Assembly: GCA_013378385.1 (NCBI GenBank)
Contig: JACAFS010000003.1
Location: 417-32,416, forward strand
DNA length: 32,000 nt
Reading direction: 5' to 3'
Source: Nitrososphaerota archaeon
Lineage (GTDB): Archaea > Thermoproteota > Nitrososphaeria > Nitrososphaerales > UBA57
Position numbers and translations under genes: made by a program. The stretch's first letter is position 1. Each line of letters starts with the position of its first letter. The notes under the pieces were generated by a model, which was given only the letters and a program-made list of their open reading frames with translations, was not told where the DNA came from and did not search any database. Below, in pieces: positions 6,893 through 32,000 of the stretch.

Positions 6893-7584
6893 TTCTTTGT
6901 TAATTCCTCTTTAGGTTTTATATCTTTTTCCGCCTTAGCTTCTTTAGCTGGCTTTTCTTCCGCCTTAGCTTCTTTAGCTGGCTTTTCTTCCGCCTTAGCT
7001 TCTTTAGCTGGCTTTTCTTCTACTTTACCATTTACTTCTTCTTTTTCATCTGGGTTTCCATATGCATCACTTTTTAATTCTTTTACTGCTATCTCTTGAA
7101 GTACAAATGTACTATTATCTGTCATTTTTATCAACGGTTCTTCATTACGTGTTACTGTATAACTTGGTATTGTTATTCTGTTCTCTCCAATTGCTATATG
7201 ACCATGTGTAATTAATTGTCGTGATTGATGTGGAGTTCTAGCTAATCCTTTTTTTAATACTACTGTCTGTAATCTTCTCTCCAAAAAATTCGAAACATTA
7301 AGAGCTAATACATTATCTAACGTTGCATCTTCAGTAACAATACCTTTCCTTGTTAGTGATGATAATAAAACCGGTTCTCTTGCCGTTCTAATCTCGGTCG
7401 TTGCAGCTAAAAGTTGTCTAGCTTGTTTTCTAATTCTTGATAATTCAGTAGATGCTACATGAAGTTCTTTTTTATTTCTTAAACCAAAATTACCAACTAG
7501 TTCTAATTCTTCTTTTAATAGATTTCGTTGCCATGGATTTCTAGGTCTGGCAGATTTCTTTCGTGAATATTTTGGATCTCCCAT
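6889..7584 (-). CDS. rps4: 30S ribosomal protein S4 (uS4) with a roughly 55-aa repeat-containing C-terminal extension
   Basis: N-terminal 'GDPKYSRKK' and the S4 domain '[28 protein letters not shown]'. The C-terminus carries 3x [10 protein letters not shown]. Confidence 0.95.
6931..7020 (-). repeat. Three perfect tandem copies of a 30-bp in-frame unit (minus-strand sense gaagaaaagccagctaaagaagctaaggcg = [10 protein letters not shown])
   Basis: By direct reading, 6931-6960, 6961-6990 and 6991-7020 are identical. Confidence 0.97.
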
Positions 7585-7588
7585 TTAA

Positions 7589-8053
7589 CTAACTCGCCTT
7601 TCCTGGTTTTAGTGTTGATTTACGTACACCCACAACTTTTCCAGCTCTTCCAGTACATCTTGTTCTTTGACCTCTTACTTTCAAGTTTAATGAATGTCTT
7701 GTTCCTCTCCAGCTTTGCAAAATTCTTTCTAAGTCTATATCTTGTTTCTTTGCTACAATCAAATCTGTTTCTATATTGTGTGAATTTTTACCAGTTTGCA
7801 TATCTTTTCGACGATTTAGATTAAATTCAGGATATTTCTCGCCCATATTTTTAATATTTTCTTCTATAGAATTAATCTGCTCATCAGTCAACATTCCCAT
7901 TCTTAAATTTTTGTCTATTCCTAGTGATTTTACCATGTAATGTGCTAGATTATTGCCTATTCCTTTAACATTTGAGAGAGATTGGACTACTTTCTTTGTG
8001 CCACTCACGTCTCTTCCCATTATTCTTACTATGTACTTGAATTCGGTCGACAA
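7589..8053 (-). CDS. rps13: 30S ribosomal protein S13 (uS13)
   Basis: 'EFKYIVRIMGRDVSG' and 'KVRGQRTR' are present. The TTG start is needed to include the conserved N-terminus. Confidence 0.95.
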   Translation of the reverse strand: MSTEFKYIVRIMGRDVSGTKKVVQSLSNVKGIGNNLAHYMVKSLGIDKNLRMGMLTDEQINSIEENIKNMGEKYPEFNLNRRKDMQTGKNSHNIETDLIVAKKQDIDLERILQSWRGTRHSLNLKVRGQRTRCTGRAGKVVGVRKSTLKPGKAS

Positions 8054-8157
8054 TTTTATAATTATGTAGATGATGCCTCTAATTAATCTTTATCGAAAAA
8101 TGATAAGGTTTTAATTACAATATTCTGCGTTTACTAGGGTATTAAGGAGACGTAAAT

Positions 8158-8793
8158 ATGGCAACCATCAAAATCTTAGAATCATCTGATTCACACGTAA
8201 AGTTACTGCTAAAAGGCATAGATAGAGTTTATGCTAATGCATTGAGACGCTTTGCTATTAGTGAAGTTCCATGTATGGCCGTAGACGAAATAGTAATTCA
8301 TGAGAATTCTTCAGTTTTATATGACGAAATACTTGCTCATCGTTTAGGACTAATTCCTCTAACTACTGATTTAGAAGGATACATACTACCAGAAGATTGT
8401 TCTTGTAAGACATCTTTGGGTTGTACTAAATGTCGGGTTTTATTAGTTCTTGATGCTGTTGCTACCGACGAAGTAAAAACTATTTACTCTGGAGATCTCG
8501 TATCTGAAGACACTCGCGTTAAACCTCATCTTGATAATATTCCAATTGTGAAACTTGCACCAACTCAAAAAATAAAATTAGAAGCCTATGCAAAGCTAGG
8601 TAAAGGACGTAATCATGCTAAATGGCAACCTGCTACTGTTTCTACACTTACCGATACTGATAATGCATCTGAATTTCATCTTACAATAGAATCAAATGGA
8701 AGTTTACCTGCAAAAGAAATATTATTACAAGCTACAAATATATTAAATACGAAATTAAAGAATATGACTGAAACAATTAAGGAATCTGCATGA
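8158..8793 (+). CDS. rpoD: DNA-directed RNA polymerase subunit D (Rpo3)
   Basis: 'YANALRRFAISEVP' and 'DEILAHRLGLIPL' are present, with an Rpb3-like Cys loop 'CSCKTSLGCTKC'. It occupies the canonical position before L18e-L13-S9-rpoN. Confidence 0.9.
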   Translation: MATIKILESSDSHVKLLLKGIDRVYANALRRFAISEVPCMAVDEIVIHENSSVLYDEILAHRLGLIPLTTDLEGYILPEDCSCKTSLGCTKCRVLLVLDAVATDEVKTIYSGDLVSEDTRVKPHLDNIPIVKLAPTQKIKLEAYAKLGKGRNHAKWQPATVSTLTDTDNASEFHLTIESNGSLPAKEILLQATNILNTKLKNMTETIKESA

Positions 8794-8794
8794 A

Positions 8795-9127
8795 ATGACA
8801 TTTGATGATTATCGTATTGAATCAATAAAACGCATTGCGCGAAAAAACCACGCAAAAATCTGGACTAATGTTGTACAAAGACTTGAACAAAAACATGAAA
8901 TTAATGTTGGAAAATTATCTAAGGTTACAAAAACAGGTGACGTTATCGCTGTTCCAGGTAAAGTTCTTGGAGCTGGTGTAATTCAACATTCAATCACTAT
9001 TGGCGCTGTATCTTTCTCTGAAAGTGCAAAAGAAAAAATTAAGAGTGCCGGTGGAACAATTATGTTGATTGAAAAACTTGTTGAAACAAATCCTGATGGA
9101 AAAGGTGTAAAGATTTTTGTTGGCTGA
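8795..9127 (+). CDS. rpl18e: 50S ribosomal protein L18e (eL18)
   Basis: Its size and position between rpoD and L13 fit. The 'AVPGKVLGAG' segment is typical of L18e. Confidence 0.85.
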   Translation: MTFDDYRIESIKRIARKNHAKIWTNVVQRLEQKHEINVGKLSKVTKTGDVIAVPGKVLGAGVIQHSITIGAVSFSESAKEKIKSAGGTIMLIEKLVETNPDGKGVKIFVG

Positions 9128-9569
9128 TTCTGAATCCACTATTGTAGTTAATGGGGATAAACATCTTGCAGGACGTTTATGCTCTGTAGTTGCTAAAATG
9201 TTGTTAAATGGCAATCGTGTTGCATTAGTTAACGCTGAAAAAATTCTTATGTCTGGCAGTAGAGCGAATATTCTTAAGGAAAATGAATTGCGACTAGAAA
9301 TCACTAGCCGTGTACATCCAAAACATGGTCCTTTCCATCCTAGACGTCCTGATACATATATAGAAAAAATGGTTAGAGGTATGCTTCCTTATAAAAAACC
9401 TAAAGGTAATGCAGCTAAAAAACGCCTACGTGTATATATCTCAATTCCAGAAAAATACCAAAAAGCCGAACATAAAACCATTGAGACTGCATTAGCGCCA
9501 AGGTCATTATCTTATTATACTACGATTGGTGAATTATGTTCATCTATGGGATGGAGAAAATTAGAATGA
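9117..9569 (+). CDS. rpl13: 50S ribosomal protein L13 (uL13)
   Basis: 'GRLCSVVAKMLLNG' and 'VRGMLPYKKPKG' are present. The start is TTG at 9117 or 9120; there is no earlier in-frame ATG. Confidence 0.9.
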   Translation: MLADSESTIVVNGDKHLAGRLCSVVAKMLLNGNRVALVNAEKILMSGSRANILKENELRLEITSRVHPKHGPFHPRRPDTYIEKMVRGMLPYKKPKGNAAKKRLRVYISIPEKYQKAEHKTIETALAPRSLSYYTTIGELCSSMGWRKLE

Positions 9570-9970
9570 AAAAGAAATCCACATTAATACCTGCTTCCAG
9601 AAAAACTGCTAAAGCTACTGCTGTAATTAGTCGAGGAACTGGTAAGGTGTTCATAAACAAAACTCCTGTTGAAATTATTACTCCATTAATGGCAAGAGAA
9701 AGAATGTTAACCCCTCTAGAATTGATTGGCGATCAAAGAGATAAAGTCGATATTAATATTCGAGTCTCTGGCGGTGGATATATGGGTCAAGCTGAAGCAT
9801 GTGCAATTGCGATATCAAGAGCGTTAATATCCCATCTTAAAACTAAAGATATTAAGACTCGAATTTCTGAATTCGATAAACATCTTCTTTCTGGAGATTC
9901 TCGTCGAAGCGAATCAAAGAAATTTGGCGGTCCAGGCGCACGAAGAAGAAAACAAAAATCGTACAGATAG
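9566..9970 (+). CDS. rps9: 30S ribosomal protein S9 (uS9)
   Basis: The C-terminal 'GGPGARRRKQKSYR' is present. I prefer the ATG at 9566 (ATGA overlap with the L13 stop) over the ORF-track start at 9536. Confidence 0.93.
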   Translation: MKKKSTLIPASRKTAKATAVISRGTGKVFINKTPVEIITPLMARERMLTPLELIGDQRDKVDINIRVSGGGYMGQAEACAIAISRALISHLKTKDIKTRISEFDKHLLSGDSRRSESKKFGGPGARRRKQKSYR

Positions 9971-9987
9971 GTTGTTGATATTTATCC

Positions 9988-10218
9988 TTGATTATTCCAG
10001 TTCGTTGTTTTAGTTGTGGCACAGTTGTTGCAGATAAACTTGAAACTTTAGAATCTCGAACATCTAATGGAGAAAGTCCTGCAGATATTCTTAACGATCT
10101 TGGGGTTACAAGATATTGTTGTAGAAGAATGTTATTATCTAATTCTAATGTAATTGATCAAATAATTCAATATCACGAGAGCCTCCATGATAAGAGAGTG
10201 GAATTCGATTTTTCCTAA
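9988..10218 (+). CDS. rpoN: DNA-directed RNA polymerase subunit N (Rpo10)
   Basis: 'IIPVRCFSCG' and 'TRYCCRRML' are present. The start is TTG. Confidence 0.95.
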   Translation: MIIPVRCFSCGTVVADKLETLESRTSNGESPADILNDLGVTRYCCRRMLLSNSNVIDQIIQYHESLHDKRVEFDFS

Positions 10219-10246
10219 TTGTATATACTTGAGGCAATACTAATTC

Positions 10247-11512
10247 ATGACAAAAATTACTGATATTAAATCCCGTTTAATTTATAATAGCCGTGGCAGT
10301 GAAACCATCGAAGTTGACGTATATGCTGATGACATTGTAGGTACTGCTTCATCCCCCGCTGGCGCTAGCGTTGGTAAATTCGAGGCCGTTTCTTTTAGAA
10401 ACTCAAAATGTCAAGATACCATCGAATATCTTGATAAATATAAATCTCATTTGATTGGCGCTGATACTTCTGATATATACAATCTTAAGAATATCTTAAA
10501 AGAAGCCGATAAGACCGATAATTATTCCAATATAGGAGGTTCAGCTGCATATGCAATATCACTTGCATCTGTTGACGCAGCTTCTCAGATTCTTAATAAA
10601 CCAATTTATGAAATACTTCTGAATGGAAAGCCAGCTGAAATGCCTCTGCCTTTAGGAAACGTTCTAGGCGGTGGTATGCATGCAGGAAATGGCTCTACTG
10701 ATATTCAAGAATTTCTTTCTTACCCTCTTGGCGCTGATTCAATACGTTCTGGAATACAAGCTAATTTGATGGTTCATAAAGAAATCAAGAAAATTATTGA
10801 TAAGAAAGACTCGAAATTTTCTGGCGGAAAAGGCGACGAGGGAGCATGGGCACCACAATTATCGAATACTGAAGCACTTGAAGTTGCCCAAGAAGCAATT
10901 AATACAGTGTCAGACATAGTTGGATTCGAAATTAGATTAGGGTTAGACGTTGCATCTTCTTCTCTTTGGAATCCCGATAAGGAACTATACGTATACTCTC
11001 GTGAAAATAAAACTCGTAACACTGAAGAACAAATCGCTTATGTTCTTGAACTAATTGAAAAATATAATTTAATCTATATCGAAGATCCCTTACACGAAGA
11101 GGCTTTTTCCGATTTTACTCAACTCTCATCCAAAAGTGACAATTGCTTAATAGTTGGAGACGATCTCTTTGTTACTAATACATCTATACTTCAGAAAGGC
11201 ATAGACCAGAAAGCTGGTAATTCTGTTATTCTTAAAGTAAATCAGGCTGGATCACTAGGTGACGCAATGGAATTTGCGAATTTATGTAATAAACATAACT
11301 ATGCAATTATCTCCTCTCACCGTTCTGGAGATACAGTGGACCGACATCTGGCTCATATTGCAATAGGTTCGGGTTCTGTTATGATGAAAAGCGGAGTAGT
11401 TGGCGGAGAAAGAATTTCAAAATTAAATGAATTAATTCGAATTGAGGAAACTAACTTTATAACTAATAACATGTCGATGCCTATTGCGAGGGTTAAAAAG
11501 TATGTCAGTTAA
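10247..11512 (+). CDS. eno: enolase (2-phosphoglycerate dehydratase)
   Basis: 'ILKVNQAGSLG' and 'SHRSGDT' are present. It sits at the canonical archaeal position before S2. Confidence 0.95.
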   Translation: MTKITDIKSRLIYNSRGSETIEVDVYADDIVGTASSPAGASVGKFEAVSFRNSKCQDTIEYLDKYKSHLIGADTSDIYNLKNILKEADKTDNYSNIGGSAAYAISLASVDAASQILNKPIYEILLNGKPAEMPLPLGNVLGGGMHAGNGSTDIQEFLSYPLGADSIRSGIQANLMVHKEIKKIIDKKDSKFSGGKGDEGAWAPQLSNTEALEVAQEAINTVSDIVGFEIRLGLDVASSSLWNPDKELYVYSRENKTRNTEEQIAYVLELIEKYNLIYIEDPLHEEAFSDFTQLSSKSDNCLIVGDDLFVTNTSILQKGIDQKAGNSVILKVNQAGSLGDAMEFANLCNKHNYAIISSHRSGDTVDRHLAHIAIGSGSVMMKSGVVGGERISKLNELIRIEETNFITNNMSMPIARVKKYVS

Positions 11513-12167
11513 TTTCGAAACCGAAGATGTTGTAAGCACAGGCGATAATATCGATAGCTCTATCACTAAACATGTATCTGAACAAGTTCTATTATCTACA
11601 GGTATTCGTGTAGGCACTCTTGTTAAAACTAAATCTATGTCTAGTTTTATCAGTAGAACTCGTCCTGATGGACTACATATCATTGATGTTGCTCAAACTT
11701 TACAACGTATTGAATTAGCTTCTAAATTTATTTCTAATTTTGATTCATCCCGTGTTGTTGCCTATTCATCCCGAGAATATGGTAAAACACCTGTCGCAAA
11801 ATTCACAGAACTTACTGGCACAATTCCTTTAACAGGAAGATTCATGCCGGGAACTTTTACTAACCCCTTGTATCCTAAACACTTGGATCCCGAAGCAGTT
11901 ATAGTAACAGATCCTTCAATGGATCTACAAGCAGTTACTGAAGCTTCTCAAGTTGGTATTCCTGTAATTGCTATATGTGATACTGATAACCTTACTGAAA
12001 ATGTTGATCTTGTTATTCCTGCAAATAATAGAGGACGTAAAGCACTCGCTGCAGTTATGTGGTTGTTATCAAGGTCTGTTCTCCAACAATCAGGTAAATT
12101 ATCTTTAGACGAATCATTACCATATGCAATTGAAGATTTCGAGACAAAATTAGTAGAAGACGAATAA
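11502..12167 (+). CDS. rps2: 30S ribosomal protein S2 (uS2)
   Basis: 'DGLHIIDV' and 'GIPVIAICDTDN' are present. I prefer the ATG at 11502 over the in-frame TTG at 11484. Confidence 0.9.
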   Translation: MSVNFETEDVVSTGDNIDSSITKHVSEQVLLSTGIRVGTLVKTKSMSSFISRTRPDGLHIIDVAQTLQRIELASKFISNFDSSRVVAYSSREYGKTPVAKFTELTGTIPLTGRFMPGTFTNPLYPKHLDPEAVIVTDPSMDLQAVTEASQVGIPVIAICDTDNLTENVDLVIPANNRGRKALAAVMWLLSRSVLQQSGKLSLDESLPYAIEDFETKLVEDE

Positions 12168-12234
12168 TTCCCATCTTTCTCTAATTATAATTACCCGCTG
12201 ATTTTTATTGTTGTAATGTATTATAAATAGTAAT

Positions 12235-13173
12235 TTGATATCAATTGCAGAAGCTCCAGGTAAAATTATTCTTACAGGGGAACATTTTGTTGTTCATGGC
12301 TCCCAAGCATTGGCAGCTGCAATAAATAAAAATATACGTATCTCCAGTAGTTTCTCATCACAGAATACTATTAAATATAAAAATCAAAAAATTTCTTTAG
12401 CGAACTACAATATAAAAAATGATCCTGTTTATATTGTTCGTAATAAAACTCTGGAATATTTGGGGAAAAAAAATACACTCTCTATCAACATCGAATCAAA
12501 CATTCCTCGTGGTTCAGGTTTAGGTTCTTCTAGCGCCTTATGTGTGGCCACTGCTGCTTCCGTTGCATCACTTTTTAATACCAAACTTGACCGAAAAACT
12601 CTATTTAATCTTGCTATGCATGGGGAAAAGAAAATTCACGGTAATCCCTCAGGAATCGACGTTGCCACCAGTATAATGGGAGGACTCATATCATTTCGTA
12701 AAGGCTATGATCCTAAACGTATTAATCTTAAGTATAATCCTGAATTAATTGTATCAATTAGCGGCAAACGCCGAAAAACATCAAATATGATAAATAAATT
12801 TACCAATCTTCGAAATGAAAAACCATATTCTTTTCATAGTTTAGTAAACTCGTCTAATACATTGACTAAAAAAACATTATCGGCACTCTCACAAAAAGAC
12901 TATCTTTCTGTTGGTTCCTATTTTAATTTCTTTAATTCCACTCTGAATTATTTCGGTCTAAGTTCTACTGTAACTGATAATATGATAGAAAAATGTCTCG
13001 AGTTAGGATCTTATGGAGCGAAAATTACTGGCGGAGGCGGAGGCGGTTCCATTATTGCTATCTCACCATCTAAATATATTAACGTAATTATTGACGAATT
13101 AAATAATATGAACTTTGAAACATTTTCTGTAAAAATTCCACAACAAGGTGTAAAGGTATGGTCAATAAATTAA
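12235..13173 (+). CDS. mvk: mevalonate kinase
   Basis: 'APGKIILTGEHFVVHG' and the GHMP motif 'PRGSGLGSSSAL' are present. The start is TTG. Confidence 0.9.
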   Translation: MISIAEAPGKIILTGEHFVVHGSQALAAAINKNIRISSSFSSQNTIKYKNQKISLANYNIKNDPVYIVRNKTLEYLGKKNTLSINIESNIPRGSGLGSSSALCVATAASVASLFNTKLDRKTLFNLAMHGEKKIHGNPSGIDVATSIMGGLISFRKGYDPKRINLKYNPELIVSISGKRRKTSNMINKFTNLRNEKPYSFHSLVNSSNTLTKKTLSALSQKDYLSVGSYFNFFNSTLNYFGLSSTVTDNMIEKCLELGSYGAKITGGGGGGSIIAISPSKYINVIIDELNNMNFETFSVKIPQQGVKVWSIN

Positions 13174-13919
13174 CAATTCTTAAATTAGGTGGCTCTGTAA
13201 TCACTAAAAAATCCAAAGCGCTTACATTTAATCGTAATTCTGTTGAAAAACTATCTAAAGTAATTAAAAAATTCAACGAACCTTTGATTATTGTTCATGG
13301 AGCAGGTTCCTTTGGACATTATTACGCTAAACGTTACGGAATCTCTAGTAAACCTACAAGATCTACTAAACATGTTGTAAAAATTCGAGATTCTATGCAA
13401 TCATTAAATCGTAAGCTTGTCGAAATATTTCATCAAAACGGTGTTGACACATTTTCTTTTTCACCCATTTACATGTATCATAATAGAAAAATTCCGAATA
13501 TCTGGAAAAATACATTACAAAAAAGTATTTCTTTTGATTTAGTTCCAATGACCTTTGGGGATGTATTACTTGGTAATAATGGATTCTATATTCATTCTGG
13601 CGATCTTATTGTATATGATCTCTGTAAGTTACTAAATCCAAAACGTGTTATTTTTGCATCAAATATTGATGGCATATACCAAAATCTCGATGATAATTCT
13701 AGTTTAGTTCCTATAATTAAGAACAATAAGAATAATCTTAAATTTTCTAAAATCAATTATGATGTTACTGGTGGTATTAAAACGAAAATAACTCAAAGTC
13801 TAAAAATTGCTAATCTTGGCATTGAAGTTCAGATTACTAATGGATTGAACTCTAAAAATTTAATCAAAGCATTAAAGGGCGAGCATATCGGAACATTATT
13901 TATCGGTGATAAACATTGA
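13158..13919 (+). CDS. isopentenyl phosphate kinase
   Basis: The amino-acid-kinase fold motifs 'LKLGGSVITKK' and 'IVHGAGSFGH' are present. It lies between mvk and the type-2 IPP isomerase. Confidence 0.85.
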   Translation: MVNKLTILKLGGSVITKKSKALTFNRNSVEKLSKVIKKFNEPLIIVHGAGSFGHYYAKRYGISSKPTRSTKHVVKIRDSMQSLNRKLVEIFHQNGVDTFSFSPIYMYHNRKIPNIWKNTLQKSISFDLVPMTFGDVLLGNNGFYIHSGDLIVYDLCKLLNPKRVIFASNIDGIYQNLDDNSSLVPIIKNNKNNLKFSKINYDVTGGIKTKITQSLKIANLGIEVQITNGLNSKNLIKALKGEHIGTLFIGDKH

Positions 13920-16041: not shown

Positions 16042-16044
16042 ATC

Positions 16045-22879: not shown

Positions 22880-23466
22880 TCGTTATTACCTTCAATAAAA
22901 TTCATTAATAACTTTCTTCCTGATTCAGTTAAAATAGACTCTGGATGACATTGAATTCCTTGTATATTGTATTCTTTATGCTTTAGCCCCATAATCTCGT
23001 TGTCATCTTCCGATCTTGCCGAAATAATTAATTCATCTGGCAATGTTTCCTCATCCACCACTAAAGAATGATATCTAGTTGCTCTAAAAGGATTTGGAAG
23101 ATTCTTAAAGATACCAGTTCCATTATGTTTAATCATACTAGTTTTTCCATGTTTCAATGTTTTTGCACGTCTAATCTTTCCTCCAAAAGTATGACCTATT
23201 CCTTGATGTCCAAGACAAACACCTAATACCGGTATTGATTTTTCTCCAGACAATTTAATAATTTCCGAACATATTCCAAAATATCTTTCATCACATGGGT
23301 TGCCGGGCCCTGGTGAAATGACTACTCTGTCTGGTTCTATTTGATTAAACTTTTCAACACTAATTTTATCATTCCTGTATACCTTTGGTTCTATTGATAA
23401 TTCTCCAAAGTATTGTACAAGGTTGTATGTAAACGAATCATAATTGTCTATTATTAATAATTTCAT
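22876..23466 (-). CDS. trpG: anthranilate synthase component II (glutamine amidotransferase)
   Basis: 'LGVCLGHQ' and 'IQCHPES' form the class I GATase triad context. Confidence 0.95.
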   Translation of the reverse strand: MKLLIIDNYDSFTYNLVQYFGELSIEPKVYRNDKISVEKFNQIEPDRVVISPGPGNPCDERYFGICSEIIKLSGEKSIPVLGVCLGHQGIGHTFGGKIRRAKTLKHGKTSMIKHNGTGIFKNLPNPFRATRYHSLVVDEETLPDELIISARSEDDNEIMGLKHKEYNIQGIQCHPESILTESGRKLLMNFIEGNNE

Positions 23467-24830: not shown

Positions 24831-25022
24831 GCTAAATTTATTCGTGCCAAAAACGATCGCCCATATTACTCACAATTACTTATTATAATTTGTATATATT
24901 TAAATAAATTACAGACGATTTGACCATTTAATAAAATATTAAAAAATATCTCATTGGCAATCTGATTTGTTGAATACTAAACCAAGAAGTTATATTCCAG
25001 TAAATTGCGAGAAATAGATAGT

Positions 25023-25394
25023 ATGTCTAAGCCTTATTACGTCAAAGTTGAAATTCCAAAAGAAATAGCTGAAGCAAGTTATGAAGCTCTTCGACAAGCA
25101 AAACAGACTGGCAAAATCAGAAAAGGTACTAATGAAGCTACCAAGGCTATTGAACGTGGAATTGCTAAATTAGTTGTTATTTCTGAAGATGTAGATCCAC
25201 CTGAAGTTGTTGCACATCTTCCTATTTTATGTAACGAAATGAACATTCCATTTGTATTTGTACCACAAAAAGAATTACTTGGTCAAGCAATTAGTATTGA
25301 TATAGGTACAGCAGTAGCTTGTATTGTCGAACCTGGCGATGCAAAAGCAACTCTGGATAAAATTATTGATTCACTAAATAATTTAAAAGGTTAG
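25023..25394 (+). CDS. rpl7ae: 50S ribosomal protein L7Ae (K-turn binding)
   Basis: 'IRKGTNEATKAIERGIAKLVVI' is present. I prefer the ATG at 25023 over the in-frame TTG at 25005. Confidence 0.95.
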   Translation: MSKPYYVKVEIPKEIAEASYEALRQAKQTGKIRKGTNEATKAIERGIAKLVVISEDVDPPEVVAHLPILCNEMNIPFVFVPQKELLGQAISIDIGTAVACIVEPGDAKATLDKIIDSLNNLKG

Positions 25395-25404
25395 ATCATA
25401 ATCT

Positions 25405-25623
25405 ATGAGCTCTAAGGAAATTCAAGAAGATAAAACTCCTTGTGAAGTAATACAAATCGTTGGACGCACTGGCGTTGCTGGTGAAATTACACAAGTTAGA
25501 GTAAAAATCTTAGATGGAAAAGATAAAGGGCGTATTCTCACAAGAAATGTTAAAGGACCTGTTCGTATGAATGATATAATTATACTTCGTGAAATTGAAA
25601 GAGAAGCCCGTAAGATAAGGTAG
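25405..25623 (+). CDS. rps28e: 30S ribosomal protein S28e
   Basis: '[23 protein letters not shown]' is present. Confidence 0.95.
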
Positions 25624-25633
25624 ATGGCTATAC

Positions 25634-25819
25634 TTGTTATCATTAAAAAAATGTACTTTTTGTGGAAAAGAAATAGCATTCGGTAACGGTACTATGTATA
25701 TTAAAAATAATGGAGATATTAGTTGGTTTTGTTCTTCTAAATGTAGAAAAAATACTTTGGATCTTAAACGTGATTATAGAAAATATAAATGGGCTAGAAA
25801 AGGAAAGTCGGTAGTTTGA
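25634..25819 (+). CDS. rpl24e: 50S ribosomal protein L24e
   Basis: 'KKCTFCGKEI...FCSSKC' is a zinc-ribbon-like pattern. The start is TTG. Confidence 0.9.
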   Translation: MLSLKKCTFCGKEIAFGNGTMYIKNNGDISWFCSSKCRKNTLDLKRDYRKYKWARKGKSVV

Positions 25820-26220
25820 CTGACAAAACTCTTATTCTAATCAAACCGGACGGTGTAAAAAAAAGACACATTGGTGATATAATAAGTCGTTTTGAAGAAC
25901 GTGGTTTTAACATCTTACATGTTCGCATGTTAACAATGAACTCTGACCAAGCTTCTGATTTTTATTCAATCCATAAAGAGAAACCATTCTTTTCTGAACT
26001 CATCGATTACATAACTTCAGGTCCAATAGTTCAGGTTGTTTTAGAAGGTAATTCTGCTATTGAGGTTGTCAGACAGATGGTTGGAGCAACAAACTCTCTT
26101 AAAGCAGCATCTGGTACAATTCGAGGTGATTTTGGCTTAAGTCATACTGAAAATGTAATACATGCATCTGACTCTGTAGATAGTTTCGAAAGAGAATTTA
26201 ATATTTTATCAAATATTTAA
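25816..26220 (+). CDS. ndk: nucleoside diphosphate kinase
   Basis: 'TLILIKPDGV' and 'NVIHASDS' are present. The TTG start forms a TTGA overlap with the L24e stop. Confidence 0.95.
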   Translation: MTDKTLILIKPDGVKKRHIGDIISRFEERGFNILHVRMLTMNSDQASDFYSIHKEKPFFSELIDYITSGPIVQVVLEGNSAIEVVRQMVGATNSLKAASGTIRGDFGLSHTENVIHASDSVDSFEREFNILSNI

Positions 26221-26262
26221 TAATTCTAAATAAAGACCTTTTACATTACTAATTGTAGATGA

Positions 26263-28041
26263 TTGATAATGAATTCTAAATTTAGACAACCAATTGTTGT
26301 AGTATTGGGTCACATTGATTCTGGTAAAACTTCACTTTTAGATAAAATTCGTGGAACAGCTGTTCAATCTCGTGAAGCAGGAGGTATTACTCAACATATT
26401 GGCGCAAGTTTCTTTCCTATTGAAACTCTAGAACAACTTTGCGGTAATCTTCTCCAAAAAGTAGGTGGAAAAATTGATATTCCTGGCATACTTGTTATCG
26501 ACACACCTGGACACGCTGTGTTTACTAATCTTAGAAATCGTGGAGGTTCTGCTTCAGACATCTCTATTCTTGTAATTGACGCTATGAAAGGTATTGAAGT
26601 ACAAACGCGTGAAAGTCTTGACATACTCAGGAAACGTAAGGTTCCTTTTCTCATAGCACTTAACAAACTTGATACCGTACCTGGATGGAGACCTTCTTCA
26701 AGTTTAACTTCATCCTTAAAACAATTAGACGAAACTACTCAAAATAATCTTGATGGAAGAATATACAACGTAGTTGGCGAACTATCGAGATATGGAATAC
26801 AATCTGAAGCATTTTATAGATTACAAGATCCACAAAAACAAGTTGCAATAGTTCCTGTTAGTGCGAAAACAGGAGAAGGAATACCCGAATTAATCTCATT
26901 ATTGATTGGCCTAACTCAAAGTTACTTAAAACAAAAACTTACTGTTAGTGATGATACTCGAGGAATAGTTCTCGAAGTTACTGAAGAACCTGGTTTAGGA
27001 GATACTGCTAATATTATTCTCACTGATGGAGTATTAAATAAACACGACGAAATCGCAGTAGCAAAAAAAGACGGAGCCGTTACTACAAAAATTAAAGCGA
27101 TATTTATGCCAAAACCGTTAGATGAAATGCGAGATCCACGCGATAAATTCACTCCTGTTGATCAAGTAGTGGCCGCTTCTGGTGTAAAAATTTCTACTTC
27201 TGATCTAGATGGAGTTCTTGGAGGTTCACCGATAATTGGCATTACTGATGGTAATATTGATTCAGTAAAAAATGAAATCGAATCCGAGATTAAAGCAATT
27301 TTTGTTGAAACTGATAGTGTTGGTATTATTGTAAAAGCTGACACTCTTGGTTCCCTTGAAGCTGTTGTAGATACTCTAAAAGAAAATGATATATCAATTA
27401 GTACTGCTGATACAGGAATGGTTTCCAGAAAGGATGTAGTTAAGGCTCAAGTAATTACTGAAACCAATAAATATTTAGGAAGTATTCTTGCCTTTGGTGT
27501 TAAAGTTCTTGATGATGCTAAAGACGAAGCAAATAAAAATGGAATAAGAATATTTTCACAACCTGTCCTTTATGATTTAGTCGATGAATATAGGGATTGG
27601 GTAACTTCTGATAAGGAAAACATGCAAAAAACTGAACTCGATTCGATAATGATGCCCTGTAAATTTCAACTAATAAAAGGAATGGTCTTTCGAAGAAACG
27701 GTCCTGCCGTATGCGGTGTAGAAATTCTTGGCGGTTCCTTAAAACAAAAATCTATTATAATAAATTCTACAGGTAAAGAAGTCGGCGTTATTAAACAAAT
27801 TGAAGATAATGGCGAAAATATTAAACAAGCAGCTAAAGGCAGTGAAGTCGCTGTCTCAATGAACGAACCTGTTATTGGACGTACTATTCGTGAAGGCGAA
27901 ATTTTATATTCTTTGCCTAATGACATAGGCGTCAGATTATTAAAAGAGCGATATCATGATTCATTATCTGACGAAGAATCTAATATTTTAGACGAAATTA
28001 TTACCTTACGACGTAAAGTTGTACCTTTGTATGGATTTTAA
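26263..28041 (+). CDS. infB: translation initiation factor aIF5B (IF2-like GTPase)
   Basis: 'VLGHIDSGKTSLLD', 'DTPGH' and 'LNKLD' are G-domain motifs. An alternative ATG start lies at 26269. No intein is present. Confidence 0.95.
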   Translation: MIMNSKFRQPIVVVLGHIDSGKTSLLDKIRGTAVQSREAGGITQHIGASFFPIETLEQLCGNLLQKVGGKIDIPGILVIDTPGHAVFTNLRNRGGSASDISILVIDAMKGIEVQTRESLDILRKRKVPFLIALNKLDTVPGWRPSSSLTSSLKQLDETTQNNLDGRIYNVVGELSRYGIQSEAFYRLQDPQKQVAIVPVSAKTGEGIPELISLLIGLTQSYLKQKLTVSDDTRGIVLEVTEEPGLGDTANIILTDGVLNKHDEIAVAKKDGAVTTKIKAIFMPKPLDEMRDPRDKFTPVDQVVAASGVKISTSDLDGVLGGSPIIGITDGNIDSVKNEIESEIKAIFVETDSVGIIVKADTLGSLEAVVDTLKENDISISTADTGMVSRKDVVKAQVITETNKYLGSILAFGVKVLDDAKDEANKNGIRIFSQPVLYDLVDEYRDWVTSDKENMQKTELDSIMMPCKFQLIKGMVFRRNGPAVCGVEILGGSLKQKSIIINSTGKEVGVIKQIEDNGENIKQAAKGSEVAVSMNEPVIGRTIREGEILYSLPNDIGVRLLKERYHDSLSDEESNILDEIITLRRKVVPLYGF

Positions 28042-28089
28042 TATATTTCAAAAAGATTTATAGATATAAAAAAGAAGTGAAATGTTACT

Positions 28090-28509
28090 TTGGCAGAATT
28101 TAAAATTGTAGTTTCAGATCCCAAAACAGGAAAATCCATAACTAAGGAGATTAAAGATAAATCTGCCCAAACCTTGATGGGCATGAAAATTGGTCAAGAA
28201 ATAGATGCTACTATTGTAGATATTGATGGAACTCTCAAAATTAGCGGAGGAAGCGATAAAGTCGGATTTCCAATGCGAAGTGACGTTCATGGGAGTGCTA
28301 GAAATAACATACTCTTAACATCAGGTGTTGGATTTCGCTCTAAAGTTAAAGGCATGCAAAAACGAAAAATTGTTCGTGGCAGTATGATTTCTGATGAAAC
28401 CTACCAAATTAATACAATTCTAGTTAAGGGTAATCTTGTTCTTGATAAGCCAGCTGAAGAAGCTAAGGCGGAAGAAAAGCCAGCTGAAGAAGCTAAGACC
28501 AAAGAATAA
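28090..28509 (+). CDS. rps6e: 30S ribosomal protein S6e (eS6) with a repeat-derived C-terminal tail
   Basis: 'FKIVVSDPKTGKS' and 'ISGGSDKVGFPMR' are present. The tail is '[20 protein letters not shown]'. The start is TTG. Confidence 0.9.
   Translation: MAEFKIVVSDPKTGKSITKEIKDKSAQTLMGMKIGQEIDATIVDIDGTLKISGGSDKVGFPMRSDVHGSARNNILLTSGVGFRSKVKGMQKRKIVRGSMISDETYQINTILVKGNLVLDKPAEEAKAEEKPAEEAKTKE
28447..28497 (+). repeat. About 1.7 copies of the 30-bp unit gaagaaaagccagctgaagaagctaaggcg (EEKPAEEAKA)
   Basis: By direct reading, these 51 nt are identical to the array at 31889-32000. Confidence 0.95.
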
Positions 28510-28529
28510 GATAATAATAAATTCAATTA

Positions 28530-29771
28530 ATGCTGATTTATATTATGCAAAAAATTCCTTGTCAACCTGAGATAAATATTGGTACTGCAGGTCATGTAGA
28601 TCATGGTAAAAGTACTATAGTTGATGCAATTACCGGTAAATGGACAAGTGCTCATAGCGAAGAACTTCGTCGAGGAATTACTATTAAAGTAGGATATGCC
28701 GACGCCGGCTTTTATCAATGTAAATGTGAAGGACCTTATAATTATTCAACTCAAGAATCTTGTTCTAAATGTAAAACTAAAGGTAAATTACAACGTGTTA
28801 TAAGTTTTGTAGATGTTCCTGGACATGAAAGTTTAATGGCCAACATGTTATCTGGCGCCGCTTTAATTGATGGAGCTATTCTAATTATATCTGCTAATGA
28901 AGAAGTTCCAAAACCTCAAACGCGTGAACATCTTCTTGCGTTACAGATGCTTGGCACTAAACAAATTGTCATTGCCCAGAACAAAGTTGATTTGGTATCT
29001 ACCAAAGAAGCACAAAATAACTATAAAAAAATTAAACAATTTGTCAAAGGCACTGTTGCTGAAAAAGCTCCGATTATTCCAATATCTGCTCAGCATGGGC
29101 TCAATATTGACGCTTTAATCTCTGCAATAGAAAGTAATATCAAAACTCCTGAAAAAGATAAACAATCTTCTCCATCTCTCCAAGTCCTACGTTCTTTTGA
29201 TATAAATCGCCCTGGCATATCATTAAATAAATTAGTTGGCGGTGTATTAGGAGGGTCACTATCTAAGGGAGTTTTTGAAGTAGGAGATGAAATTGAAATT
29301 CGACCTGGATTTCTTAATAAAAAATCTGATAAATATCAATCTCTCTTTAGCAAAATTTCTAGCTTAAGTAGCAGCGCTGGATTAATGGATAAAGTTTATC
29401 CTAGTGGATTAGTTGCAATTGGAACGGATCTGGATCCATCTCTAACAAAAAGCGATTCTTTCGTTGGATCAGTTGTTGGACATCCAAATGAACTTCCTGA
29501 AACATATTATTCTATTAATGTCGATCTCGATCTCTTTGATTTTGCTATTGGATCAACTGATATGATAAAAGTAGAAAAATTAAAGCGAAATGAAGCATTA
29601 CGAATAAACTCAGGTACTGCAGTTACTGCCGGAGTGGTTACTAATGTAAGTAATGACAATGCTACTATTGATTTACGACGTCCTATTACCGCCGAACAAA
29701 AAAGTCGATTATCTATTAGTCGAAGACTTGGAGATCGTTGGCGTCTAATTGGAGCGGGGGTAATCTCTTAA
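28530..29771 (+). CDS. eif2g: translation initiation factor aIF2 gamma subunit
   Basis: 'GHVDHGKST', 'DVPGHE' and 'QNKVD' are present, with the zinc knuckle 'CKCEG...CSKCK'. An alternative ATG lies at 28545. Confidence 0.95.
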   Translation: MLIYIMQKIPCQPEINIGTAGHVDHGKSTIVDAITGKWTSAHSEELRRGITIKVGYADAGFYQCKCEGPYNYSTQESCSKCKTKGKLQRVISFVDVPGHESLMANMLSGAALIDGAILIISANEEVPKPQTREHLLALQMLGTKQIVIAQNKVDLVSTKEAQNNYKKIKQFVKGTVAEKAPIIPISAQHGLNIDALISAIESNIKTPEKDKQSSPSLQVLRSFDINRPGISLNKLVGGVLGGSLSKGVFEVGDEIEIRPGFLNKKSDKYQSLFSKISSLSSSAGLMDKVYPSGLVAIGTDLDPSLTKSDSFVGSVVGHPNELPETYYSINVDLDLFDFAIGSTDMIKVEKLKRNEALRINSGTAVTAGVVTNVSNDNATIDLRRPITAEQKSRLSISRRLGDRWRLIGAGVIS

Positions 29772-29775
29772 CATC

Positions 29776-30174
29776 TTGAGAACTATTGTCCTTGATACTA
29801 GTTTCTTAATTCATGTTGCTAATAATCCTCTACCTAGTTCTGATTACCTGTCAGATATCAAATCTTATAATTTAGTCACAATTGACGACGTTGTTCAAGA
29901 ATTATTTGGTCTCTCTCACGATCGAAAAAATTCCTCTAAAACTAAACGTTCAAAAGAAGCCAATCTTGCCCTTCAATATATTAAAGATATCCCAAAAGAA
30001 AAGATCGATGGCTCTGGCACAACCGATGATAAACTCCTTACTTATACGACTAGAAACCATGATATAATTGCAAGTTTAGACCGCGGCATACTCAATAAGG
30101 CCATTAGTCTCAATATAGATTCGGTCACTATTGAAAAACAACGCTTAATCTGGCGTATAAATTATAATCGCTGA
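29776..30174 (+). CDS. PIN-domain protein, Fcf1/Utp24-like (COG1412-type)
   Basis: The N-terminal acidic PIN motif 'IVLDTSFLI' is present, plus later 'TTDDKLL' and 'ASLD'. It holds the conserved archaeal position after aIF2-gamma. The start is TTG. Confidence 0.7.
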   Translation: MRTIVLDTSFLIHVANNPLPSSDYLSDIKSYNLVTIDDVVQELFGLSHDRKNSSKTKRSKEANLALQYIKDIPKEKIDGSGTTDDKLLTYTTRNHDIIASLDRGILNKAISLNIDSVTIEKQRLIWRINYNR

Positions 30175-30243
30175 AATGATTCCCAAAAATCGAAAAATTC
30201 ATATTGCTCCCTTTCGCGTTAACATTATTCTAGGTATATAGAT

Positions 30244-30825
30244 ATGTTTCAAATTATAGAAGCCGAAGACGTTGTACGTGTAGAACCACTAGACTTTAGT
30301 GAATCCCTAAATAAAATGGCTGAAAAAATGCTAAAAATTAAATATGAAAGTACGCTTTCTCCTGAATTTGGATATATTGTACTCATCATTAATGTTAAAG
30401 CCGATAAGGTCGGAAAAATACTTCCTAGTGATGGAGCTACTTATCATAGTGTTCATTTTAAAATTCTTACCTACCTGCCTAAATTACAAGAAGTTGTTGA
30501 AGGTGAAGTTGTAGAAATTACTGATTTTGGTGCATTTATTCGAATTGGACCGACCGATGCATTATTACATTTGTCTCAAATTACTGATGAATATCTTAAC
30601 AGTGATGTCCGTCAGGGTTTGATTACTGCACAACAAAGCAGTCGTACAATTAGTGTTGGTACTCGAATGCGAGTTCGTGTAACTGCATTAAGTCTAGCTC
30701 GAGGTAGTTCTATGGGTAAAATCGGCGTTACTTGCAGACAACCATTTCTTGGTGCAACTGATTGGATTGAAGAAGATCTTAAAAAAACCTCAAAACCAGC
30801 TTCTAAGAAAAAGGAATCTGAATAA
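30244..30825 (+). CDS. rpoE: DNA-directed RNA polymerase subunit E' (Rpo7)
   Basis: The S1 domain 'VEGEVVEITDFGAFIRIGPTDALLHLSQI' follows an N-terminal Rpb7-like domain. Confidence 0.9.
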   Translation: MFQIIEAEDVVRVEPLDFSESLNKMAEKMLKIKYESTLSPEFGYIVLIINVKADKVGKILPSDGATYHSVHFKILTYLPKLQEVVEGEVVEITDFGAFIRIGPTDALLHLSQITDEYLNSDVRQGLITAQQSSRTISVGTRMRVRVTALSLARGSSMGKIGVTCRQPFLGATDWIEEDLKKTSKPASKKKESE

Positions 30826-30827
30826 TA

Positions 30828-31022
30828 ATGGCTAAAGAACTAGCTTGCAGAAAATGTAAAATCATCATACCATCTTCAGGTCGTGTTTGTCCTAGTTGCG
30901 GTGGTACTGATTTAAGTACTGACTGGTCCGGTCTAATTGTATTATCTAATCCTGATAAATCTCAAGTTGCTAAACAATTGGATTTTACAAAACCAGGTCG
31001 ATACGCTATTAAAGTATCTTAA
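30828..31022 (+). CDS. spt4: transcription elongation factor Spt4 (RpoE'')
   Basis: The zinc ribbon 'CRKC...CPSCGG' is present. The protein is 64 aa and lies directly after rpoE'. Confidence 0.8.
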   Translation: MAKELACRKCKIIIPSSGRVCPSCGGTDLSTDWSGLIVLSNPDKSQVAKQLDFTKPGRYAIKVS

Positions 31023-31054
31023 TTCTAATCTTCTAATAATACTTATGATGTAAA

Positions 31055-31582
31055 TTGGACGTAAAAAATCTCCCAAAAAAATACCGAGATTTTCTTAAAC
31101 GTCCTTTTGGCGAATTGATAAATTCCTCTAATCCTTCATTTCATGAAATAGATTCCATAATAAATAATTATTCATTCTTAATTACTGTTGGAGACGCGTC
31201 ATCTGAAAATATCTCTAAATTAGGAATTAAAGCTAATATACAAATTATTGATCTAATGGAACGTAGGCATAAACGTACTTTTCCTAAATTACATTGGACT
31301 GAAAAAAGATCCATTGATAATCCTCCAGGCACTCTGTCCACAGAATCGATTGTTCTAATACATGATTTAATCACACAAAATACCGATTCTCTTGTAGTTG
31401 TTAATGGAGAAGAAGACCTTCTTGCTTTACCATCGATCCTTTTTGCTCCGTTGAACGCGTATGTCCTCTATGGCCAACCAAATGAAGGTCTAGTTGTAGT
31501 CTCTGTTACTGAATCATTAAAAATCAAAGTTCAAGGTATATTAATAGAAATGGGTTTTAGTGAAAATATACTAAAGTATTAA
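31055..31582 (+). CDS. GTP-dependent dephospho-CoA kinase (DUF359/COG1909 family)
   Basis: 'ITVGDASS' and 'VNGEEDLLALP' are present. It holds the conserved archaeal position between spt4 and S24e. The start is TTG. Confidence 0.72.
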   Translation: MDVKNLPKKYRDFLKRPFGELINSSNPSFHEIDSIINNYSFLITVGDASSENISKLGIKANIQIIDLMERRHKRTFPKLHWTEKRSIDNPPGTLSTESIVLIHDLITQNTDSLVVVNGEEDLLALPSILFAPLNAYVLYGQPNEGLVVVSVTESLKIKVQGILIEMGFSENILKY

Positions 31583-31609
31583 TAGTTGAAATTATTAAGC
31601 CTTGTATCG

Positions 31610-32000
31610 ATGAACTTCACAAAATTTGAAAAACGAGCAAATCCATTGCTAGAAAGAACTGAAATCTCTGCAATTTTCGATATTGAAAACACATCATTTA
31701 ATCGACGTGAAGCTTCTACCTTAATCGCAAAAGAAGCTAAAATCAATCCTGACACAGTTTATTCTATTAAATTATCTAATAGTGCTGGTTCACATTATGT
31801 TTCTGGTTTATTTTACGTCTATAAAGATGAAAATACCGCCAAAATGTATTTACCAAAATTTATTTTAAATAGAAATGTTCCAAAGATAGAAGAAAAGCCA
31901 GCTGAAGAAGCTAAGGCGGAAGAAAAGCCAGCTGAAGAAGCTAAGGCGGAAGAAAAGCCAGCTGAAGAAGCTAAGGCGGAAGAAAAGCCAGCTGAAGAAG
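31610..32000 (+). CDS. rps24e: 30S ribosomal protein S24e (eS24), 3'-truncated by the window, with a tandem-repeat C-terminal extension
   Basis: This ORF is not in the ORF track because it has no stop. My own translation from the ATG at 31610 reads MNFTKFEKRANPLLERTEISAIF...YVYKDENTAKMYLPKF, followed by (EEKPAEEAKA)n that is still open at base 32000. Confidence 0.85.
   Translation, partial: MNFTKFEKRANPLLERTEISAIFDIENTSFNRREASTLIAKEAKINPDTVYSIKLSNSAGSHYVSGLFYVYKDENTAKMYLPKFILNRNVPKIEEKPAEEAKAEEKPAEEAKAEEKPAEEAKAEEKPAEE
31889..32000 (+). repeat. At least 3.7 perfect tandem copies of the 30-bp unit gaagaaaagccagctgaagaagctaaggcg; the array runs off the window
   Basis: By direct reading, 31889-31918, 31919-31948 and 31949-31978 are identical, and 31979-32000 is a partial fourth copy. 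Confidence 0.97.

Follow-up and report, generated by a model that had tools for sequence, protein, structure and literature searches.

Why is it that, in an AT-rich marine lineage of uncultured Nitrososphaerales (thaumarchaea), three non-homologous ribosomal protein genes end in copies of one 30-bp unit, and what does it mean for the chromosome that one of these arrays is inverted relative to the other two? The unit, GAAGAAAAGCCAGCT[G/A]AAGAAGCTAAGGCG, is present at the 3' ends of the uS4, eS6 and eS24 genes of the window, the whole stretch of 32,000 nucleotides that was analysed (Table 1). We consider it probable that one joint account holds, made up of a minisatellite tail, exchange of sequence between loci and an inversion of about 25 kb through the uS4 and eS24 arrays.

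Table 1. Positions of the host genes, the arrays and the invertible block in the window (TRF, Tandem Repeats Finder).
Feature	Positions	Strand	Description
uS11 gene	6491..6892	-	outside the invertible block
uS4 gene	6889..7584	-	Pfam S4 4e-14; 231 aa
uS4-type tail end and stop	6889..6930	-	diverged orthologous version in relatives, E(E)DIKTKEESTEK
uS4 array	6931..7020	-	3 perfect 30-bp units GAAGAAAAGCCAGCTAAAGAAGCTAAGGCG, 10 residues each; TRF 6928-7020, 3.1 copies, 100% matches
Invertible block	7021..31888	.	about 24.9 kb between the uS4 and eS24 arrays; inverted in sublineage II
eS6 gene	28090..28509	+	Pfam S6e 2e-34; 139 aa
eS6 array	28447..28500	+	about 1.8 units, EE variant; TRF 28447-28506, 2.0 copies, 90% matches
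eS24 gene	31610 to beyond 32000	+	Pfam S24e 4e-12; 93-aa body, then repeat units
eS24 array	31889..32000	+	at least 3.7 perfect units GAAGAAAAGCCAGCTGAAGAAGCTAAGGCG (EEKPAEEAKA), runs off the window end; TRF 31889-32000, 3.7 copies, 100% matches, array interrupted by the window end

The repeat module is a 30-bp coding minisatellite for a Glu/Lys/Ala/Pro-rich C-terminal tail that is predicted to be disordered. Its units, a multiple of three in length, are joined head to tail and in frame, with 100% matches in the uS4 and eS24 arrays. An earlier note, made from the sequence of the window, had placed the units of the three genes in the same codon phase, and a single frame (GAA GAA AAG CCA GCT xxx xxx GCT AAG GCG) was indeed common to all three arrays. 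It had also described the eS6 and eS24 units as identical and the uS4 unit as one A/G transition away. The second part stands, as the uS4 unit differs from that of eS6 and eS24 by one A/G change per unit (AAA GAA, or KE, instead of GAA GAA, or EE), whereas the eS6 array does not hold two full identical units: the first opens with GAT in place of GAA GAA, the last closes with ACC AAA GAA TAA, and the whole eS6 tail has 21 residues. The uS4 protein consists of a body extending to about residue 188, the three repeat units and a 13-codon tail end, and its stop codon overlaps the start of uS11.

When up to three mismatches were allowed, the 30-mer matched the window seven times, while 100 dinucleotide-preserving shuffles yielded no match at all, and a six-frame scan of the window showed no further E/K/P/A-rich stretch beyond the three arrays. 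The unit is as GC-rich as the earlier note had stated (15/30, or 50% G+C, compared with 33.1% for the window), and the AAG and GCG codons that it uses are rare in their surroundings: AAG accounted for 17 of the 20 lysine codons inside the repeats and 17.7% outside, and GCG for 7 of the 24 alanine codons inside and 7.6% outside. The inverted orientation of the uS4 copy, also pointed out beforehand, was recovered by alignment of the uS4 array with the eS24 array (96% over 98 nt) and with the eS6 array (90% over 63 nt).

The uS4 and eS24 arrays run in opposite directions, so a crossover within them would invert the block that they enclose, and in one sublineage this appears to have happened. The block contains the genes for uS13, RpoD, L18e, L13, uS9, RpoN, enolase, uS2, the mevalonate pathway, a class-I aminoacyl-tRNA synthetase (Pfam tRNA-synt_1c), trp genes, L7Ae, eS28, NDK, aIF5B, eS6, aIF2-gamma, Rpb7, Spt4 and DUF359, together with the bodies of uS4 and eS24. 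The uninverted order is uS4-uS11 and eS24-eS31, and the inverted order is eS24-uS11 and uS4-eS31. In the inverted relatives, eS24 ends with the uS4-type tail end and is followed by uS11-GlmS (DUF359-eS24(...AEDIKTKEESTEK)-uS11-GlmS in contig L011), and uS4 ends with the eS24-type tail end and is followed by eS31 (uS13-uS4(...AEKAKE)-eS31 in contig L012), which gives the hybrid C-termini ...NVPKMEEKPAEKAKAEEDIK for eS24 and ...AEKAKE-COOH for uS4. The uS4-type tail end adjoins uS11 in every arrangement and terminates eS24 (or eS6) in the inverted relatives; the upstream partner of uS11 among the relatives is uS4, eS24 or, doubtfully, eS6.

The evidence on arrangement comes entirely from short-read metagenome assemblies. 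In these, the junctions were reciprocal, with both breakpoints inside repeats, and in three cases both inverted junctions were located about 25 kb apart on one contig (L012 and L059 on PicMicro_10001351, L058 and L085 on k141_61477, and L011 and L076 on k141_815087), while both uninverted junctions were located on Ga0209501_10000091, k141_1193730 and k141_874043. The far junction was reached through members of the eS31 cluster; by exact match, RpoD, L18e, L13, uS9, enolase and uS2 were not identical in the relatives, and RpoN differed at its C-terminus. Comparison of L011 with uninverted contigs showed no differences in 2205 + 834 nt of flanks. The arrays at the junctions contained 1 to 4 units, which points to crossovers at many registers.

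The inverted order was observed in more than 20 contigs of sublineage II, across both junction censuses and in several assembly styles. It was present in 8 of the 9 contigs on the uS11 side, in 9 of the 10 places listed on the eS31 side (out of a larger set with nine further similar places) and in all 12 complete members of the uS4 cluster. The accession numbers of uS4 and eS31 were adjacent in three NCBI genome assemblies from metagenomes, and four scaffolds crossed the uS4 array by 100-N gaps, which we read as paired-read links from the uS4 body to eS31. The contigs of sublineage II thus present what the earlier note had predicted of recombination between uS4 and eS24, a flipped block with the reading frames kept and the tail ends swapped. 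In this state both genes stay in frame, nothing but their final 6-13 codons and the genes downstream is exchanged, uS11 is translationally coupled to eS24, and eS31 follows uS4. Such an inversion would be tolerated because at each junction one ribosomal protein gene acquires the tail end and the downstream cistron of a second. In sublineages I and II the oppositely oriented arrays are 100% identical; in the window, the uS4 and eS24 units differ by one base per unit, so that the longest perfect match is 29 nt, and this pair is probably a poorer substrate for recombination than those of the two sublineages.

Could the junctions have been made by assemblers? If only the shared repeat were real, the eS24-uS11, uS4-eS31, eS6-uS11 and uS4-aIF2-gamma joins would be chimeric de Bruijn paths through a collapsed repeat, and a repeat that is not spanned gives the same assembly graph for both orientations. 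Many contigs end inside an array, probably including the source contig of the window, some scaffolds have N gaps inside arrays, and the junctions of L011, L058 and L066 hold one unit only, like the shortest path through a collapsed repeat. Sample ERZ27247699 contained both an eS6-uS11 join (L066) and a 3,604-bp contig (L068) with ends overlapping by 141 nt, which is exactly the loop expected from two collapsed direct arrays, and it is clear that assemblers can misjoin here. However, gene order followed the sublineage and not the assembler, and this makes a purely chimeric origin unlikely: sublineage II was inverted in MEGAHIT-, SPAdes-, JGI- and scaffold-style records as well as in NCBI assemblies, whereas sublineage I, with an identical unit and arrays at least as long, was uninverted in 9 of 10 places. 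Moreover, most junction arrays measure 30-120 nt, which is less than the final k of 141 and less than the read length, and the tail end of sublineage II reads EEDIK instead of the EDIK of sublineage I, so that the junction is no simple splice of uninverted sequences.

Minority arrangements were found as well (L011 and L076 in sublineage I, L091 in sublineage II, and L066 and L067 as the product of a uS4 x eS6 event). Those within sublineages suggest that the inversion is recurrent, but they could be misjoins of the kind seen in L066 and L068. We did not accept an inversion between uS4 and eS6, because L066 and the loop contig L068 were assembled from one sample and the other support consists of a single low-coverage SPAdes contig (L067) and its protein (P0152). 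It also seems rather doubtful that the arrays act as portable recombination sites through which the core-gene block flips back and forth in deep-ocean thaumarchaeal populations. If they did, each flip would move uS11-GlmS and eS31 to another ribosomal operon and swap tail ends, a recombinase-free heterogeneity of ribosomes and operons that would be driven by homologous recombination and possibly be under selection.

A programmed and reversible switch resembling phase variation, which would place uS11-GlmS and eS31 under a different operon or alter the tail composition of the ribosome, is very unlikely. Although each orientation can be found as a minority form inside a sublineage, with identical flanks, and all reading frames are intact in either state, the minority forms could be errors of assembly, the two states differ in 6-13 terminal residues only, and crossover takes place in ordinary coding repeats that vary in length and not at short fixed sites. 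No recombinase or invertase gene was present among the Pfam matches in the window or in the annotated 20-kb flanks of the relatives, which also argues against such a switch.

In the joint account of tail, exchange and inversion, the arrays gain and lose whole units, and those of uS4, eS6, eS24 and, in some strains, eS31 trade sequence with one another through homologous recombination or gene conversion, a mechanism that we infer from the pattern of variants. Copy number varied among near-identical strains, whose flanks diverge by less than 0.4% within a sublineage, from 1 to 4 units in uS4, from 1 to 5 in eS24 and from 1 to 2 in eS6 (some low counts may reflect assembly collapse); the arrays thus behave as variable-number tandem repeats (VNTRs) of 1-5 units. 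Units within one array were homogeneous, yet GAGAAA and GAAAAA, which are synonymous variants, each filled arrays of different genes. The eS24 arrays of sublineage II were all-GAA in L016 and L058-L065 and all-GAG in L049, one gene carrying different variants in strains with flanks less than 0.4% apart. Mosaic arrays were also observed, as in P0148 (KE, EE and EE units), and some uS4 proteins of window-type (sublineage III) sequence had arrays in which all or part of the units were of the EE type found in eS24 (P0141, P0148 and P0150).

Exchange between arrays of non-homologous genes would keep identity at synonymous sites and make the unit type change together across loci. The shared synonymous variants, the mosaic arrays and the joint turnover of units fit conversion, and reciprocal crossovers could give the same patterns. 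Gene conversion or a recent spread of the unit between loci, which the earlier note had preferred to independent evolution, is supported by variants that cross genes, by mosaics, by the unit of sister lineage IV and by the apparent gain of the unit in eS31. Independent convergence of the genes on one optimal tail peptide without any exchange of DNA is barely credible: many eS24 and uS4 proteins of archaea do have tails of similar composition, but the identity reaches synonymous sites and the locally rare AAG and GCG codons, convergence being largely refuted by the former, synonymous variants are common to different genes, a 24-bp unit is common to eS6 and eS24 in the sister lineage, and recombinant tail ends exist.

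By analogy, gene conversion and inversion between dispersed repeats seem to be known in kind. In Salmonella, gene conversion between the inverted duplicate genes tufA and tufB is coupled to chromosomal inversion, and a share of the recombination events inverts the intervening block while both genes stay functional, according to PMC6735719 (citing Hughes 2000) and PMC5485169. The likeness is that near-identical inverted sequences in clusters of translation-machinery genes exchange by homologous recombination. The archaeal case differs in that the repeat is not a duplicated gene but a coding tandem repeat of 30-120 bp appended to non-homologous genes, so that exchange yields hybrid proteins with the body of one and the tail end of another, and in that the evidence comes from natural populations of an archaeon and not from Salmonella genetics.

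Related prokaryotic strains are also distinguished by inversions that arise when dispersed, inverted rRNA operons or insertion sequences undergo homologous recombination. Here too, dispersed inverted repeats recombine and the arrangement separates related strains, but the rRNA operons and insertion sequences span kilobases and do not code for protein or are mobile, whereas our repeats measure about 0.1 kb and form part of the reading frame of proteins. Prokaryotic coding VNTRs, known mostly from surface or contingency genes, have in common with these arrays the perfect head-to-tail units in multiples of three, the copy-number polymorphism and the homogenisation within arrays; in contrast to them, these arrays belong to genes for essential ribosomal proteins and are common to several loci. 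A coding repeat of about 0.1 kb in non-homologous essential genes can homogenise loci and rearrange a chromosome, with ribosomal proteins that would be hybrid but functional as the outcome, and the system is a naturally occurring parallel, in archaea, to the tufA/tufB paradigm. The gene order uS13-uS4-uS11, which is universally conserved, is breakable without apparent harm. For genome binning and synteny work, the arrays are a warning that assemblies break or misjoin at such places; unit variant, copy number and orientation provide markers by which the strains of this abundant, uncultured archaeon of the sea can be followed.

Collections of metagenomes and genomes were scanned with the 21-nt core of the unit as a DNA pattern. 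A search of relatives for the 30-mer had been proposed in the earlier note, and within this lineage the carriers proved to be genes of small-subunit ribosomal proteins only (uS4, eS6, eS24 and eS31). The genome collection contained one relative with the unit (L010), the other nine matches being single chance matches in bacteria, and metagenome loci with a single match were rejected as carriers, most of them being unrelated KPAKKAKK-type bacterial or other sequences. In L046, L080-L084 and P0167, copies of the unit form a new tail on eS31; these contigs are window-like, and their upstream array matches the EE type of the window. It appears from these sequences that eS31 gained the unit in some strains, and that up to four small-subunit genes are tailed in some relatives. 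Sister lineage IV has a different 24-bp unit, GAAGCTCCAGCAGAAGAATCTAAA, which is present four times in eS6 and three times in eS24 and is DNA-identical between the two.

The Pfam domains stop before the tails, and residues 168-231 of uS4 were predicted by AlphaFold2 with pLDDT below 50 and without secondary structure. The tail may be a flexible, solvent-exposed appendage. The earlier idea of an undescribed feature of the ribosome surface holds in part: within this lineage the unit was found in genes of small-subunit proteins only, and the tail is predicted to be disordered, but charged repetitive C-terminal tails with many different units are widespread in archaeal eS24 and uS4, which makes the tail itself an ordinary ribosome feature. 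No description of these tails in Thaumarchaeota was found in the limited literature collection searched, which does not prove novelty. Composition rather than exact sequence is probably what is maintained, because related lineages carry quite different units. In this respect the tails resemble other charged low-complexity extensions of ribosomal proteins, which are likewise carried on a conserved domain, predicted to be disordered and conserved in composition over sequence; unlike those, the tails of three or four proteins are here made from one DNA unit and evolve together.

The arrays of the window were located with Tandem Repeats Finder and assigned to genes by translation and Pfam, and, with the codon counts, they bore out the earlier note's description in every material point.

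Features of the window and of related loci (the window unless a locus is named)
Feature	Coordinates	Strand	Remarks
uS4 array	6928-7020		3.1 copies, perfect 30-bp; Tandem Repeats Finder
eS6 array	28447-28506		2 copies; Tandem Repeats Finder
eS24 array	31889-32000		3.7 copies, perfect 30-bp, continues past window end; Tandem Repeats Finder
uS4 gene	6889-7584	minus	array at 3' end
eS6 gene	28090-28509	plus	array at 3' end
eS24 gene	31610 to beyond 32000	plus	array at 3' end
uS13-uS4-uS11 and RpoD to uS2 clusters	6491-12167	minus and plus, respectively	divergent
132-aa reading frame	29776-30174	plus	between aIF2-gamma and Rpb7
L046, tailed eS31	1686-2087	minus	
L010, eS31	1063-1341		acidic N-terminal extension
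L079, eS31	10399-10686		acidic N-terminal extension
L059, split eS24	2093-2504		JGI 3300003702 PicMicro_10001351
L037, eS24	230-757		Ga0164318_10278308, 43% G+C

All arrays share the codon phase GAA GAA AAG CCA GCT nnn nnn GCT AAG GCG, as claimed for the 3' ends of uS4, eS6 and eS24; nnn nnn is AAA GAA in the uS4 units and GAA GAA (peptide EEKPAEEAKA) in those of eS6 and eS24, which is the A/G difference previously noted. The claimed identity of the eS6 and eS24 units held for this variant, but the eS6 array really amounts to about 1.8 units, its first and last codons being altered. Seven matches to the 30-mer with up to three mismatches were found in the window and none in shuffled sequences. 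The unit is 15/30 G+C in a window of 33.1% G+C and archaeal information-processing gene content, and it contains locally rare codons, as proposed: AAG represents 17/20 of the lysine codons in the repeats versus 17.7% elsewhere in the window, and GCG 7/24 of the alanine codons versus 7.6%. No further E/K/P/A-rich stretch was present in any frame of the window, and such a tail is absent from its other ribosomal proteins, uS13 and uS11 (identified by Pfam) and L18e, L13, uS9, uS2, L7Ae and eS28 (by synteny with annotated relatives). The uS13-uS4-uS11 cluster, with GlmS directly after uS11, is divergent from RpoD-L18e-L13-uS9-RpoN-enolase-uS2.

The source genome is outside the GTDB representatives. 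A single relative with a metagenome-derived genome assembly (Nitrososphaerales archaeon L010) was identified, and protein searches, a metagenome scan for a 21-nt core and exact-protein look-ups gave about 60 related loci drawn from numerous marine samples. The flank DNA defined three sublineages 3-4.5% apart, with a divergence below 0.4% within each: sublineage I (e.g. L010 and Ga0209501_10000091), sublineage II (e.g. PicMicro_10001351 and ORDI01000056) and sublineage III (the window and locus L034). Locus L079 represents a more distant lineage IV.

Within sublineages, the number of units varied from one to four in uS4, one to five in eS24 and one to two in eS6. Four DNA variants were found at unit positions 16-21, each uniform inside an array: GAAGAA (EE; window eS6 and eS24, sublineage I eS6), AAAGAA (KE; window uS4), GAGAAA (EK; sublineage I uS4 and eS24, some sublineage II uS4 and eS24 arrays) and GAAAAA (EK; sublineage II eS6, most sublineage II eS24 arrays and one uS4 array). 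One synonymous variant is thus common to different genes, and one gene carries differing variants across near-identical strains; the eS24 array is all-GAA in locus L016 versus all-GAG in L049, with flanks differing at 3/834 nt. Window-type (sublineage III) uS4 proteins include some with eS24-type EE arrays (P0141 and P0150, and partly the mosaic P0148). Lineage IV has a 24-bp unit, GAAGCTCCAGCAGAAGAATCTAAA (EAPAEESK), DNA-identical in eS6 (four copies) and eS24 (three copies). Common descent cannot account for one unit in genes that are not homologous, and convergence is ruled out because synonymous sites and rare codons match as well. Spread of the unit followed by ongoing exchange between loci is the only reasonable interpretation of these sequences, in agreement with the gene conversion or recent spread proposed earlier. 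The uS4 cluster member P0146 (1,340-bp contig) has a sublineage III-type body, unusual EEKPAEEAKAEKKPAEEAKA units and a sublineage II-type tail end, EEDIKTKEESTEK, which suggests recombination between sublineages.

The earlier note had predicted that recombination between the uS4 and eS24 or eS6 arrays would invert the intervening block and swap the tail ends, and such products were found. Some eS24 proteins carry the uS4-type tail end (P0130, ...AEDIKTKEESTEK; P0123, ...AEEDIKTKEESTEK; compared with uS4 P0009), and some uS4 proteins (P0010, P0153-P0166) the eS24-type ...AEKAKE. The swap is confirmed by the gene orders, which are DUF359-eS24-uS11-GlmS in locus L011 and uS13-uS4-eS31 in L012, versus uS13-uS4-uS11-GlmS in the window and DUF359-eS24-eS31 in L010. 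Three contigs, PicMicro_10001351 (L012 and L059), k141_61477 (L058 and L085) and k141_815087 (L011 and L076), each contain the two recombinant junctions, separated by about 25 kb, and three others, Ga0209501_10000091, k141_1193730 and k141_874043, each contain the two parental junctions. The tail end, the downstream gene and the overlap of the uS4-type stop codon with the uS11 start are fixed in place; the gene bodies are flipped together with the whole segment that separates them. In L059, a frameshift within the array breaks eS24 into reading frames of 98 and 48 aa, with MEEKAS* as the tail; either the sequencing or assembly is faulty here, or this eS24 is naturally truncated and tailless.

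In sublineage II, the inverted order was found in 8/9 contigs on the uS11 side, in nine of the ten places shown on the eS31 side (with nine further similar places beyond those) and in 12/12 uS4 cluster members that are complete, among them three from NCBI assemblies in which uS4 and eS31 have adjacent accession numbers. The inverted records bear MEGAHIT-, SPAdes-, JGI- and scaffold-style contig names or are NCBI assemblies, and look like the output of several pipelines; in four scaffolds the uS4 array is bridged by 100-N gaps, which we read as paired-read links. Sublineage I was uninverted in 9/10 places, and the single junction observed in sublineage III (uS4-uS11) and in lineage IV (eS24-eS31) was uninverted too. 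The order uS13-uS4-uS11 is general in archaea, so the inverted state is derived. On these sequences, a fixed inversion difference between sublineages appears well supported.

Recurrence of the inversion within sublineages is plausible but unproven. The sublineage I contig with L011 and L076 is inverted at both junctions yet identical to uninverted contigs over 2205 + 834 nt, and the sublineage II contig L091 has an uninverted eS24-eS31 junction. Products of uS4 x eS6 exchange were also found, L066 (eS6-uS11) and L067 (uS4 with an eS6-type end, then aIF2-gamma). All of these fit recurrent crossovers. Assemblers can, however, misjoin at arrays, as indicated by L068 (ENA ERZ27247699 k141_1750540, 3,604 bp), from the same sample as L066. 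Its first and last 141 nt are identical and its order, Spt4'-DUF359-eS24 (eS6-type tail end)-aIF2-gamma-ORF132-Rpb7-Spt4', is that of a loop between the direct eS6 and eS24 arrays. This is either an assembly-graph artefact, of the form expected from two collapsed direct arrays, or a 3.46-kb unit that was excised or duplicated; that essential genes were truly excised is less plausible.

A fourth gene, eS31 (S27ae), has gained a C-terminal tail of the unit in L046, L032, L080-L084 and the P0167 cluster (70 members). The tailed proteins measure 113-133 aa (up to 152 aa including P0198, P0199 and P0203) versus 92 aa in sublineages I and II, and another array, directly oriented, precedes the gene by about 400 bp. 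Each of the five contigs inspected with this variant (L080-L084) begins in or just past this upstream array, which in L080 consists of EE units like those of the window; a tailed eS31 therefore probably lies just past position 32000 in the genome of the window as well. The eS31 N-terminus has an acidic low-complexity extension in L010 and L079 (e.g. MVEEEITKTEVEKTSEESPVEEKPVSKAKGK); its length varies from lineage to lineage, and it includes an EEKP motif similar to the unit.

AlphaFold2 modelled uS4 residues 1-160 with confidence and gave residues 168-231 a pLDDT below 50 and no secondary structure. This predicted disorder, and the restriction of the unit within this lineage to small-subunit protein genes (among relatives found by the 21-nt core scan, whose genomes are incomplete), agree with the ribosome-surface feature proposed earlier, but charged repeat tails are ordinary on archaeal uS4 and eS24. 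More distant uS4 orthologues (45-50% identity) have other units (e.g. EAKPA, EAPAT, EAAPA, EAPAKEEET and VEKPAEA), and in eS24 representatives of diverse sequence clusters the tail is rich in Lys, Glu, Ala and Pro, spans 6-114 residues and is often repetitive. The tail is therefore an ordinary appendage of conserved composition, its exact unit free to turn over. The small-subunit restriction could come simply from proximity, all four genes being within about 25.5 kb, and the functional proposal is unproven and less unusual than supposed. A similar tail exists outside this lineage, in the eS24 of a different archaeon (L037), with 12 tandem PAEEAK units (hits 36 bp apart) and a distant eS31 homologue following.

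The genetic interpretation, exchange and inversion, is thus supported and extended. A site-specific switch is ruled out by the varying crossover register and the lack of a recombinase gene near the arrays (window Pfam; annotated flanks of L011 and L012). No description of these tails or this inversion was found in the limited selection of literature searched. Among described systems, tufA/tufB in Salmonella comes closest; according to a passage of PMC6735719 citing Hughes 2000, recombination between inverted duplicate genes there leads to gene conversion and, in a large share of events, inversion. Here, in contrast, the recombining sequence is a coding tandem repeat of 0.1 kb attached to essential genes that are not homologous, hybrid proteins arise, the universally conserved uS4-uS11 adjacency is broken and the events come from natural populations of archaea. 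The 132-aa reading frame of the window, without a Pfam match, is conserved and has the same position in all relatives examined.
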